DNA of 64,000 nt from Alphaproteobacteria bacterium (GTDB lineage: Bacteria; Pseudomonadota; Alphaproteobacteria; RF32; CAG-239): NCBI GenBank assembly GCA_044432975.1, contig JAWXUC010000004.1, forward strand, positions 30,291 through 94,290, given 5' to 3'. The position numbers and the translations under genes were made by a program. The notes under the pieces are model-generated. The model saw only the letters and a program-made list of their open reading frames with translations, was not told the DNA's origin and did no database searches. Positions 14,616 through 56,358 of the stretch are shown here, piece by piece; position 1 is the first letter of the stretch, and every line of letters begins with the position of its first letter.

Positions 14616-14651
14616 TTTTTTCAGTGCAAAAAACAATCAATTAATGCTATA

Positions 14652-14811
14652 TAGACCATTTTACGAAAAGATAGAATCCCTTTGCTCGTCTTTTGCTTTT
14701 TGTTCTTTATTTTTATTTATAAACTGTAGTCCACTACACTTCATAAATAAAAATAAATTCAAAAAACAAAATCCTTCACAGGCATATTCTATCTTTTCGT
14801 AAAATGGTCTA
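14652..14811. mobile_element. 160-bp palindromic MITE (copy A)
   Basis: Perfect 26-bp terminal inverted repeats TAGACCATTTTACGAAAAGATAGAAT (14652-14677 / 14786-14811). The internal core TTTGCTCGTCTTTT...AAAATCCTTCACA is shared with 33261-33424 and 58124-58287. Confidence 0.8.
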
Positions 14812-14831
14812 GCTGAATGATTATATTTTTA

Positions 14832-14859
14832 TTGCAATTTGTTTTAATTGATTTATATT
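14832..14859 (+). promoter_or_regulatory. Sigma-70-type promoter of structured RNA copy 1
   Basis: TTGCAA (14832-14837), 16-nt spacer, TATATT (14854-14859). Equivalent boxes lie at the same distance in the other two copies. Confidence 0.55.
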
Positions 14860-14866
14860 TGTTTTT

Positions 14867-15038
14867 AGTCGGGATGGCTCGGCGGAAATTATTGTGTATG
14901 GTGTCTGAAAAACACTTACATGGAACTTCACTGTTAAAGGTGGAGTGTTCGGATAGGGCTATATGCTTAAGAAGAACGGCTGCCATGTACAGTTTTTCAG
15001 CTCCACCACTGATTTTTATAATTCAGTGGTTTTGTTTT
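14867..15038 (+). ncRNA. Unclassified structured RNA / leader, copy 1 of 3
   Basis: Paralogue of 28792-28957(-) and 56151-56322(-). Helices P0, P1, P1b, P2 and P3 are kept by compensatory changes. Carries the invariant CAGTTTTTCAGCTCCACCACT and ends in CCACTGA..TCAGTGG + TTTTGTTTT. Confidence 0.75.
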
Positions 15039-15063
15039 AACTATAACAAAATGGAGTGAAAAA

Positions 15064-15282
15064 ATGAATTTTAATAAAACTATGAAAGAGCTTGGAAAGC
15101 AGGTTTTTGACTTAAGACAAGAGCAGGGGTTAAGCTTGCAAAAGTTATCAGGAATTTCTGGAATAAAGAAGAAAAAGTTAGAAAAACTAGAGTTGGGTTT
15201 GACTGAAATAGATATAGGTACAATTAAAAAAATAGCAAAATTTTATGGTGAAGATGCTAAAATAATTTTAGATAATCAATAG
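15064..15282 (+). CDS. Small Xre/Cro-type helix-turn-helix protein (72 aa)
   Basis: GGAG RBS; LSLQKLSGISGIKKKKLEKLELG HTH pattern; paralogue at 28545-28772. Confidence 0.75.
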   Translation: MNFNKTMKELGKQVFDLRQEQGLSLQKLSGISGIKKKKLEKLELGLTEIDIGTIKKIAKFYGEDAKIILDNQ

Positions 15283-15298
15283 GTTGTGTTTGTTTTTA

Positions 15299-15336
15299 AT
15301 ATTCTAGATTTCTAGAATTCTAGAAATCTAGAATAT
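15299..15336. repeat. Perfect 38-bp palindrome rich in CTAG
   Basis: ATATTCTAGATTTCTAGAA|TTCTAGAAATCTAGAATAT; a further half-site GAAATCTAGAATATA lies at 15341-15355. Confidence 0.9.
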
Positions 15337-15460
15337 GTGTGAAATCTAGAATATAAGTTGATTGAGTGTTTTTTTACCCCCTTTTGTTACTGGCGTGACA
15401 TTTTCCCCGCAAGGGGCAAATGATATAGCAAACGCAAAATTATTTGATTGCATATCTCTT

Positions 15461-28498: not shown

Positions 28499-28538
28499 AA
28501 TTACGCATTACGTAGAACGTTCTACGTAATGCGTAATT
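28499..28538. repeat. Perfect 40-bp palindrome
   Basis: AATTACGCATTACGTAGAAC|GTTCTACGTAATGCGTAATT, 6 nt downstream of the Xre ORF stop. Confidence 0.9.
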
Positions 28539-28544
28539 TTTTAA

Positions 28545-28772
28545 TTAAATCTCTTTAGATTTAAGGATAATAGATATATCTTGATTATAATACTTTGCTA
28601 AGATTTTAATCATTCTAATATCTAAAACACCTTTGCCAAGTTCTGTTTTTTCTAATAAATCTTTATTGATTTTTACTTCTTTTGCAACAGTTGCTAATCT
28701 TTTAGATTTTTCTTGCCTGAGTTTGAAAATTTGCAAGCCAAATTCTTTTTTTATGTTTTTTATTTTCGTCAT
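28545..28772 (-). CDS. Small Xre/Cro-type helix-turn-helix protein (75 aa)
   Basis: Paralogue of 15064-15282 (KEFGLQIFKLRQE..LEKTELG..ILAKYY); the same GGAGTGAAAAAATG start context. Confidence 0.75.
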   Translation of the reverse strand: MTKIKNIKKEFGLQIFKLRQEKSKRLATVAKEVKINKDLLEKTELGKGVLDIRMIKILAKYYNQDISIILKSKEI

Positions 28773-28791: not shown

Positions 28792-28957
28792 AAAACAAAA
28801 CCACCTGATTTATATCAAGTGGTGGAGCTGAAAAACTGCCAAGACAGCTATCCTTATTTGGCATAGCCTTATTCGGACGCTCCACCTAGTGGTGAGCGTT
28901 TCTTGGTAGTGTTTTTCAAGCACCATACATAATAATATCAGCCAAGCAATCTTGACT
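28792..28957 (-). ncRNA. Unclassified structured RNA / leader, copy 2 of 3
   Basis: Same block order and helices as copy 1. Terminator CCACTTGAT..ATCAGGTGG + TTTTGTTTT on the minus strand. Confidence 0.75.
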
Positions 28958-28964
28958 GATATTT

Positions 28965-28993
28965 AATATATAAGAATCTTTTTTATTTGTAAA
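28965..28993 (-). promoter_or_regulatory. Sigma-70-type promoter of structured RNA copy 2
   Basis: Minus strand TTTACA (28993-28988), 17-nt spacer, TATATT (28970-28965). Starts 5 nt after the rph stop. Confidence 0.55.
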
Positions 28994-31752: not shown

Positions 31753-31829
31753 GGCGATCGTAGCTCAGTTGGTAGAGCCCCGGTTTGTGGTACCGGTTGT
31801 CGCGAGTTCGAGCCTCGTCGTTCGCCCCA
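31753..31829 (+). tRNA. tRNA-His (GTG) with encoded G-1 and CCA
   Basis: The cloverleaf folds by hand: G-1, acceptor GCGATCG/CGTTCGC (one T-T mismatch), D arm GCTC..GAGC, anticodon stem CCGGT/ACCGG with loop TTGTGGT, T arm GCGAG-TTCGAGC-CTCGT, discriminator C, CCA. Confidence 0.92.
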
Positions 31830-55866: not shown

Positions 55867-56127
55867 TTATTTTTTGTTAATGATGTTATAAAATTTGTTT
55901 AAGCAATTATAAATATCTTTTGCGGTTAAATATATGGTGTATCCTATTATGTTTAGAGATAATTTGTCGTCTTTTGTTTCTGTTAAAGGTTCTTTAAAAA
56001 ATTCTTCAAGCTCTATTATTGCCTTTTGCTTTCTTTGGGATGTTGTTAATAGTTCTTTTTTTTCATCATTATAAGAGTGATATAGATAAATTAAGTTTTC
56101 CATTAATCTTTTTTCTTCTTTGCTCAT
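55867..56127 (-). CDS. Small hypothetical protein (86 aa) downstream of RNA copy 3
   Basis: ORF starts 24 nt after the RNA terminator T-run. Not similar to the Xre proteins of copies 1 and 2. Confidence 0.5.
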   Translation of the reverse strand: MSKEEKRLMENLIYLYHSYNDEKKELLTTSQRKQKAIIELEEFFKEPLTETKDDKLSLNIIGYTIYLTAKDIYNCLNKFYNIINKK

Positions 56128-56150: not shown

Positions 56151-56322
56151 AAAAAAAATCACCACCACTAAAAAAGTGGTGGAGCTGAAAAACTGCCGCA
56201 TGTCAGCCACTCTAATTCGAGCATAGCCTTATATCGAGCACTCCACCGAAGTGGGTGACTCATACGGATAAAACGTTTTTCAGGCGTTATACATAATAAT
56301 ATTAGCCAAGCCTATCTTGACT
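56151..56322 (-). ncRNA. Unclassified structured RNA / leader, copy 3 of 3
   Basis: Same blocks and helices as copies 1 and 2. P2 is capped by a TTCG loop. Terminator CCACCACT-TTTTT-AGTGGTGG then TGATTTTTTTT on the minus strand. Confidence 0.75.
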
Positions 56323-56330
56323 ATGCTTTT

Positions 56331-56358
56331 ACTATATAGCTCATTTCTGTTTTGTAAA
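56331..56358 (-). promoter_or_regulatory. Sigma-70-type promoter of structured RNA copy 3
   Basis: Minus strand TTTACA (56358-56353), 16-nt spacer, TATAGT (56336-56331). Confidence 0.5.

Follow-up and report, generated by a model that had tools for sequence, protein, structure and literature searches.

The Brt RNAs of Bartonella are multicopy (2-34 per genome), very abundant transcripts of ~170-200 nucleotides (nt) encoded upstream of nearly silent, promoter-less XRE genes (Trp). Their 3' stem-loop is a transcription attenuator whose deletion turns the gene on, and heme has been suggested as the trigger (PMC5387305; PMC8070961). They have been described as confined to the genus Bartonella (Tu et al. 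2016, PMC5387305; review PMC8070961), and neither an alternative-pairing model nor a covariation analysis is found in the cited Brt literature (PMC5387305; PMC8070961). The small RNA (sRNA) sRNA-Xcc1 (Rfam RF02221) lies upstream of symE in Xanthomonas integrons (bioRxiv 10.1101/2025.06.18.660453) and forms a tandem array of five copies ~385 nt apart in Xylella (PMC12189769). Such cassettes have previously been described at the level of phenotype (Brt/Trp: adhesin expression, biofilm) or by name alone (sRNA-Xcc1). The present analysis concerns a multicopy leader element in an uncultured member of the Alphaproteobacteria (GTDB lineage RF32; CAG-239; assembly GCA_044432975.1): the DNA analysed, hereafter the window, comprises 64,000 nt of contig JAWXUC010000004.1 (positions 30,291 to 94,290, forward strand). 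Each copy of the element is a self-contained cassette in which a sigma-70-type promoter is followed by a structured leader of ~165 nt, an intrinsic terminator and a small XRE-type gene that lacks a promoter; the leader probably decides whether the small downstream DNA-binding regulator is made.

The motif CTCCACCACT has exactly three matches in the window, at 15001-15010 (+), 28827-28818 (-) and 56184-56175 (-), and each match closes a conserved element of ~165 nt (alignment A1) on its 3' side. A covariance model of the element (R1) found three copies only in the window, at 76-80 bits. The order of parts is the same in all copies: a sigma-70-like promoter, the helices P0, P1, P1b, P2 and P3, the block CUCCACC (b3), a terminator hairpin and a U-tract, with a small open reading frame (ORF) beginning ~25-30 nt beyond the U-tract. 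P1 is a long-range helix (CUGAAAAAC / GUUUUUCAG) that is invariant across the window copies, and P1b is a variable helix. The exact reverse complement of CTCCACC, GGTGGAG (b2), is located at 14939-14945, 28886-28880 and 56247-56241.

Homologues were collected in two pattern scans. The first covered species-representative genomes with a pattern that contained both blocks, which makes it unfit to test b2 and b3; it gave ~55 true homologues, all from metagenome-assembled genomes (MAGs) of uncultured gut Alphaproteobacteria, with many contigs per MAG. The second, run on metagenomes, relied on a pattern whose sole anchors were the P3 loop, CUG and the P1 3' strand and which included neither block; it added ~50 further copies, mostly from human gut. 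Beyond the window, the family thus amounts to ~100 copies in gut Alphaproteobacteria MAGs and gut metagenomes, several per genome.

Across 79 distinct relatives, the central base (N) of GG[N]GGAG varies together with both of its proposed partners, with zero mismatches. Three states of P2 5' strand, b2 and b3 were seen: UCCAC/GGUGGAG/CUCCACC, UCCUC/GGAGGAG/CUCCUCC and UCCC/GGGGAG/CUCCCC. In the unconditioned set, b2 and b3 combine as GGUGGAG with CUCCACC, GGAGGAG with CUCCUCC and (U)GGGGAG with CUCCCC(G), besides the G.U-type combinations GGGGGAG with CUCCUCC and GGUGGGG with CUCCACC, and the P2 5' strand tracks them as UCCAC, UCCUC, UCCC or CUCC. The central b2:b3 pair is U-A in 52 of the distinct sequences, A-U in 15, G-C in eight and G.U in four, and 75 of the 79 retain full complementarity over 7 base pairs (bp). 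At the matching P2 pair (columns 93-119 of alignment A5) the counts are A-U 52, U-A 15, C-G 9 and U.G 2, none being unpaired. In an ungapped alignment of the blocks (A6), 0 of 500 shuffles reached the observed covariation score, and sliding the partner by 1-3 columns lowered pairing from 99% to 39-71%. Neighbouring copies on one contig can differ in their b2/b3 state (L097, L084 and L110), which indicates that the pairing is intramolecular and not directed towards a shared trans target. As judged from these sequences, selection maintains both the P2 hairpin and the long-range helix GGNGGAG:CUCCNCC, which are unable to coexist; one strand with two exclusive, selected partners is the signature of a conformational switch.

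The mutual exclusivity of P2 and GGTGGAG:CTCCACC had been put forward in an earlier note on this DNA, and it is borne out: the two helices share a strand, and compensatory changes maintain each of them. That note was also right about the exact complementarity of the two blocks, but set the start of GGTGGAG at 14940, one base late (14939). Its description of the blocks as invariant is true within the window but not among the relatives, where they vary, and covary. The opening of P1 and P1b that the alternative helix demands if no pseudoknot is formed was absent from it.

The first of the two global folds (fold A) consists of P0 followed by P1 and P1b, which close a three-way junction with P2 and P3. 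The same note's three-way-junction domain is upheld by the alignment, in which 97.6% of cells are paired and 28 of 39 pairs show compensatory changes; this alignment was fitted to the model and is thus biased towards the structure. In copy 1 (all coordinates +), P0 is a 5' hairpin at 14868-14883 (GUCGGG-AUGG-CUCGGC), with compensatory changes across the family at 8 of 8 pairs. The P1 strands CUGAAAAAC (14905-14913) and GUUUUUCAG (14992-15000) enclose the junction; a compensatory G-C to C-G change in P1 (CUCAAAAAC/GUUUUUGAG) is present in L097 and L108. P1b pairs UACAUGG (14917-14923) with 14983-14989, which is followed by CA; all seven pairs show compensatory changes and the helix is hypervariable among paralogues. 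P2 is formed by CUUCAC (14926-14931), the first partner of GGUGGAG (14939-14945), which in fold A contributes to P2 and to the base of P3. The P3 hairpin (14947-14982) has a conserved internal loop (consensus GAUAUAAG / CGAAUAAG) and a conserved GRCUG, and is common to both folds.

The b2:b3 helix crosses P1: with P1 intact it would be a pseudoknot, and otherwise P1, P1b and P2 must open. When b2:b3 was forced, the resulting fold (fold B) placed the P1 5' strand in the loop of a small GGUG:CAYC hairpin, stacked b2:b3 on P3 and formed a GRCUG:CAGUU hairpin. In copy 1 the GGUG block at 14900-14903 can pair with CACU (14913-16) as this small hairpin (H5). Pairing is kept in 99% of cases, with three compensatory changes in copy 3 of the window (AACG...CGUU) and a single one in L112. 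In folding predictions for the growing chain, the hairpin is retained up to the point at which the P1 3' strand is made. The closing helix of fold B and P3 covary. GGUG, CAYC, CA and the G of GRCUG are conserved but unpaired in fold A and are paired in fold B, which fits bistability. Two further pairings were rejected: an extension of P1 by GGUG:CUCC, drawn by RNAalifold, does not covary and is disrupted in copy 3 of the window and in L112, and a shifted register, GGUG:CACC, which occurs in growing-chain predictions and could compete with the terminator, lacks covariation at its position (47-173), whereas the terminator pair (173-203) covaries.

Block b3 of copy 1 (15001-15007), the second partner of b2, reaches with its last 2 nt into the intrinsic terminator (15006-15038), in which CCACUGA (15006-15012) pairs with UCAGUGG (15023-15029) ahead of UUUUGUUUU. 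The arms are CCACTTGAT/ATCAGGTGG in copy 2 and CCACCACT/AGTGGTGG in copy 3, each followed by a U-tract as in copy 1. Throughout the family the terminator 5' arm starts with the last CC of b3, whatever the b3 type, with an overlap of 2-5 bases, and the base of the terminator covaries (CC[G/A/U]CC : GG[C/U/A]GG = G-C 43, A-U 11, U-A 2). When b3 is sequestered, the terminator loses ~5 kcal/mol (median) and its stem shifts by 2-3 nt from the U-tract (2 nt in copy 1). From the general behaviour of intrinsic terminators, sequestration of b3 would be expected to weaken termination strongly. In the window, CTCCACC overlaps the terminator arm by 2 nt in copies 1 and 2 and by 5 nt in copy 3.

Direct reading of the three copies agrees with the sequences and terminator arms that the earlier note had given, each pair of arms being followed by a U-tract. 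Its assignment of CTCCACC as the terminator 5' arm holds for the shared first bases of a covarying terminator, but the overlap is just 2, 2 and 5 nt. The note had further paired the block with the ribosome-binding site TGGAGTG in copies 1 and 2, as a third pairing of the switch. A 5-nt pairing, CUCCA:UGGAG, does exist there, but it does not extend over the whole of TGGAGTG, and family-wide it is reduced to generic CUCC:GGAG. This pairing shows no covariation across the family, the base 5' of GGAG being independent of b3 position 5', and is not above chance; it has been dropped from the switch. With that one of the three claimed pairings set aside as spurious, the proposed terminator/antiterminator platform has the build of a four-segment attenuator or of the expression platform of a riboswitch. 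As a separate observation, the U-tract (UUUUGUUUU) is followed, just before the Shine-Dalgarno sequence, by a complementary AACAAAA (15030-15051, 28800-28781 and 56158-56135 in the window; L131:5400-5425); the two are kept across the family and could form a second hairpin in read-through RNA.

In our preferred interpretation, held with somewhat more confidence than doubt, the leader acts in cis as a conditional terminator: of its two global folds, fold A terminates and fold B reads through into the XRE gene. In fold A, CUCCNCC would be free, the terminator hairpin would be completed beside the U-tract, and transcription would stop with the release of a short RNA. In fold B, b2 would quit its P2 partner and pair with b3 to form the closing helix stacked on P3, while the P1 5' strand would be parked in the small GGUG:CAYC hairpin, giving an overall sRNA-Xcc1 shape. 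Block b3 holds the first 2-5 bases of the terminator 5' arm, and fold B would strip the G-C pairs at the stem base beside the U-tract; with the terminator so weakened, polymerase would read on into the regulator gene. That fold B causes read-through, including the direction of the effect, is inferred. The default state is predicted from the energies to be the junction (fold A) plus the terminator. The change from A to B might be triggered by a small molecule, an ion, a protein or the kinetics of transcription. The P3 internal loop is a candidate binding site, because it is the most conserved unpaired element common to both folds.

Several points weigh against this interpretation. Nearest-neighbour energies, which leave out pseudoknots and tertiary contacts, make fold B less stable than fold A, by 4-10 kcal/mol as long as the 3' arm of the terminator is missing and by 8-14 kcal/mol once the RNA is full-length, so that a stabilising factor or a kinetic path would be needed. 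The changes at the covarying position are few (an estimated three or four independent events), many of the sequences are paralogues or orthologues, and the shuffle control ignores relatedness. The GGUG:CAYC hairpin is backed by two variant sequences, and no covariation was seen across the family in the other hairpin of fold B, GRCUG:CAGUU. In most copies the terminator overlap is only 2 nt. Regulators, and no metabolic genes, are found downstream, which offers no clue to a ligand. The RNA evidence consists of assembled contigs only, which may contain DNA.

The RNA might instead act mainly in trans, as a stand-alone sRNA with a constitutive terminator, whose C-rich b3 or another exposed region pairs with mRNAs; the XRE gene would then be expressed by leak-through only, and b2:b3 would serve for self-masking or maturation. 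We regard this as unlikely, though it accounts for the element's own promoter, strong terminator and very stable fold (z-scores of -3.9 to -6.0) and for the resemblance of b3 to an anti-Shine-Dalgarno seed. There is also precedent for it: sRNA-Xcc1 was detected as an 88-nt RNA (PMC2996969), and the Brt RNAs, among the most abundant transcripts, have been proposed to act in trans (PMC5387305; PMC8070961). However, b3 covaries with b2 from copy to copy inside one genome (L097, L084 and L110), which shared targets would forbid, the ribosome-binding site does not covary, and RNA and ORF are duplicated together as a unit that shares one promoter. A dual function, in cis and in trans, is possible. 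A different form of control in cis would act on translation, with CUCCNCC masking the Shine-Dalgarno sequence of the XRE gene in read-through transcripts. GGAG stands 6-10 nt before the start codon in every copy, and the 5-bp CUCCA:UGGAG helix can form in window copies 1 and 2; but most CUCCACC copies have AGGAG, which gives a mismatch, CUCCUCC copies have either AGGAG or UGGAG, window copy 3 has GGAAUUG instead, and four bp with any Shine-Dalgarno sequence are generic. Of all the explanations considered, this is the least probable.

It may also be asked whether the element regulates at all. The two pairings could be successive steps in the folding of a single native structure rather than alternative functional states: b2:b3 would form a pseudoknot on an intact P1/P1b, with P2 as a transient placeholder, or the reverse. 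Local hairpins that guard a strand until its distant partner has been made are common, b2:b3 crosses P1 and so is formally possible as a pseudoknot, and the energies, as computed, would miss both this and any tertiary contact. The geometry is difficult, however, since with P1 and P1b intact a link of only ~5-6 nt would have to span ~18 bp between P3 (3' end) and the far end of P1b, which seems too short by a rough estimate. Under a single fold, moreover, the 2-5-nt terminator overlap kept in all b3 types would be an odd coincidence, and the 3' stem-loop of the Bartonella analogue demonstrably gates its downstream gene (PMC8070961). We consider a single, non-regulatory fold improbable, more so than a trans-acting sRNA.

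The context of the homologues bears out the cassette arrangement. An ORF of ~70-90 amino acids with a helix-turn-helix (HTH) domain is found downstream in 76 of 95 distinct contexts, usually starting 40-80 nt past b3, a distance that leaves no space for a separate ORF promoter. Between paralogues of one MAG, similarity is confined to the stretch from -40 to about +500, so the duplicated unit comprises promoter, RNA and ORF. On L097 (9862-11311), three RNA+XRE cassettes of two different b2/b3 types are arranged in tandem, ~515 nt apart, between accC and a Sel1-repeat gene. Chicken-gut metatranscriptome contigs of one homologue span the leader through the ORF; they come from unstranded assemblies and are weak evidence. 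The window sequence itself was matched in fish-gut metagenome (DNA) runs only, and no match to the motif was found in the viral contigs scanned. In many MAG copies (L013, L020, L049, L074, L077 and others) a separate repeat of ~30-60 nt (AACAAGCTGGYGGCAGCTTGACCCC...) was observed between terminator and ORF; it holds a hairpin and a TTGACC motif, and once lies upstream of the promoter (L013, -143 to -115 from the RNA start).

In the window, copy 1 is preceded by a promoter-like site found by hexamer scan (14832-14859, +; TTGCAA, 16-nt spacer, TATATT), from which a transcription start at ~14866-14868 was inferred; copies 2 and 3 and the MAG homologues are preceded by comparable hexamers. A second promoter-like site inside copy 1 (TTTTCA-17-TATAAT, 14994-15022) occurs in this copy only and was judged to be due to chance. 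The ribosome-binding site UGGAG (15052-15056, +) precedes an ORF of 72 amino acids (15064-15282, +) encoding an XRE/Cro-type HTH protein (Pfam HTH_3, E 5.6e-8). Copy 2 (28792-28993, -) has its promoter at 28993-28965 (TTTACA-17-TATATT), RNA at ~28958-28792, b2 at 28886-28880, b3 at 28827-28821, the terminator at 28822-28801 and the U-tract at 28800-28792; its ORF of 75 amino acids (28545-28772, -) encodes an XRE/Cro-type HTH protein with weak matches to HTH_31 and HTH_19. The corresponding positions for copy 3 (56151-56358, -) are 56358-56331 for the promoter (TTTACA-16-TATAGT), ~56322-56151 for the RNA, 56247-56241 for b2, 56184-56178 for b3, 56182-56162 for the terminator and 56158-56151 for the U-tract. 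Unlike the ORFs behind nearly all other copies, its downstream ORF of 86 amino acids (55867-56127, -) had no HTH or other Pfam match. The folds of the window RNAs are stable, with z-scores of -3.9 to -6.0, in DNA of ~32% G+C. The neighbouring genes are ordinary chromosomal ones (LeuRS, GyrB, enolase, RNase PH, RuvAB, ThyA), and the PADLOC defence-system profiles gave generic HTH matches only.

Some repeats were observed close to the cassettes. Palindromic TCTAGAA / TTCTAGAA repeats cluster at 15296-15355, directly past the stop codon of the copy-1 XRE gene, with 7 of the 15 window matches of the TCTAGAA motif packed within 50 nt. The motif is not enriched over the window as a whole (15 observed, 10.3 expected) and only the local cluster stands out, which may be an operator array for an HTH protein. 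A long inverted repeat (gaccattttacgaaaagatagaat ... attctatcttttcgtaaaatggtc, 14650-14812), placed shortly before the promoter of copy 1, flanks an A+T-rich hairpin (14706-14757). A perfect 38-nt palindrome, ATTACGCATTACGTAGAACGTTCTACGTAATGCGTAAT (28500-28537, -), directly follows the copy-2 ORF and could be a terminator or a protein-binding site.

Scanned against Rfam at gathering and E-value thresholds, the window copies matched no family; the sole match in the window at the gathering threshold is an ordinary tRNA gene (31754-31826). Rfam 15 gave no match to any riboswitch family, T-box or other known cis-regulatory RNA. RF02221 itself has no match in the window at its gathering threshold, and copy 1 gives none even at E<=10. 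On relatives of all types the RF02221 model scores 23.1-30.6 bits against a gathering threshold of 53, and five relatives are aligned with the closing helix on b2:b3. In this alignment the first sRNA-Xcc1 hairpin (AUACAA/GAAUAA loop) falls on P3 and UUUUGAG on UUUUCAG. For the reciprocal comparison, a model of fold B only (R2) was built from the gut-alphaproteobacterial family alone, and four genuine sRNA-Xcc1 copies (69-73 bits to RF02221) were fetched as reference. R2 found 4 of 4 in register, at 25.1, 18.9, 18.1 and 17.1 bits (E 1.5e-4 to 0.02 in 80 kb); the fold-A model R1 gave no match on the sRNA-Xcc1 loci.

In fold B, the 3' two-thirds of the gut family thus follow the same plan as sRNA-Xcc1: a G-rich/C-rich closing helix ending in GGAG...CUCC, an AUA(U/C)AA / GAAUAA internal loop in the first hairpin, a second hairpin, UUUU(C/G)AG and the closing strand. 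The matches lie below threshold, but they are reciprocal and in one register. Genuine copies, like the gut elements, are located upstream of same-strand genes for DNA-binding proteins (e.g. BRO-N, ORF6N-like), at a distance of 15-40 nt. The four genuine copies lack the 5' extension (P0 and the 5' strands of P1, P1b and P2) and with it fold A: the gut family carries ~60 extra 5' nt with covarying pairings, whereas sRNA-Xcc1 is an independent ~88-nt RNA. The same four copies also lack a separate terminator hairpin with a U-tract, and sRNA-Xcc1 has been described as a trans-acting sRNA. At L071:1126-1261, a 5'-truncated copy without P0 and the P1, P1b and P2 5' strands retains GGGGAG/CUCCCC and the terminator, lies ~600 nt upstream of a full copy and would be able to adopt only the sRNA-Xcc1-like fold. 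At a Neisseria locus (L137:1412-1476), a second sRNA-Xcc1-like element was found by R2 (20.9 bits) ~225 nt downstream of the genuine copy.

The Brt/Trp tandem is the closest system in terms of gene layout and function. Both occur in Alphaproteobacteria and are multicopy (here three per 64 kb, and at least eight contigs per MAG), and in both an XRE HTH gene devoid of a promoter directly follows a structured RNA that has one of its own. In five plasmid copies, Brt is a multi-stem junction closed by a covarying P1, and its P2 hairpin CCCGGAAUUCCGGG is followed downstream by a 3' block CUCCCGGAAU that is complementary to the 3' strand of that hairpin. No Rfam family matches Brt, and R1 gave no match on pBGR3, so that homology in sequence is not detectable by the fold-A model; R2 matched four Brt copies weakly (7.4-14.6 bits), all in register on CCGGGAG...CUCCCGG. 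Brt also differs in having no obvious U-tract terminator and a gap of 10-18 nt to the gene. We class the window element as a variant that is related to sRNA-Xcc1, extended at the 5' end and built like Brt/Trp; by the criteria of those two families it is a member of neither.

Among cis-acting leaders in general, the element resembles transcriptional riboswitches and four-segment attenuators (purine riboswitches, trp-type leaders) in that a weak, A-U-rich P1 closes a structured domain, b2 has two exclusive partners, and the terminator 5' arm overlaps the alternative helix, following 1:2 / 2:3 / 3:4 logic. As in a riboswitch, a conserved domain supported by covariation is joined to an expression platform with mutually exclusive structures. 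It differs from these leaders in having no link to a metabolic or transport gene and an antiterminator-terminator overlap of just 2-5 nt. A leader peptide was also sought in the alignments, and the sole AUG, in the variable P2 loop of some copies, is absent in many and has no Shine-Dalgarno sequence.

RNA-plus-regulator cassettes are not genus-specific, and are abundant in the uncultured gut Alphaproteobacteria of humans, chickens, deer and fish. The mechanism suggested here, in which two folds share one strand and a terminator borrows two bases, is concrete and testable. It is rare for covariation at one and the same nucleotide to support both of two exclusive helices, and RNA elements of this kind offer a good entry to new ligands or protein effectors, and the natural variants of b2, b3 and P2 (U-A, A-U, G-C) are ready-made compensatory mutants. 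More speculatively, and with more doubt than confidence on our part, the gut family, Bartonella Brt and sRNA-Xcc1 might form one superfamily of orphan riboswitch-like leaders that gate XRE, SymE, BRO and ORF6N regulators or toxins and sense one signal through the shared P3 internal loop, with the 5'-extended members switching between two folds for terminator control. If so, the superfamily would be widespread, on chromosomes, integrons, plasmids and prophages.

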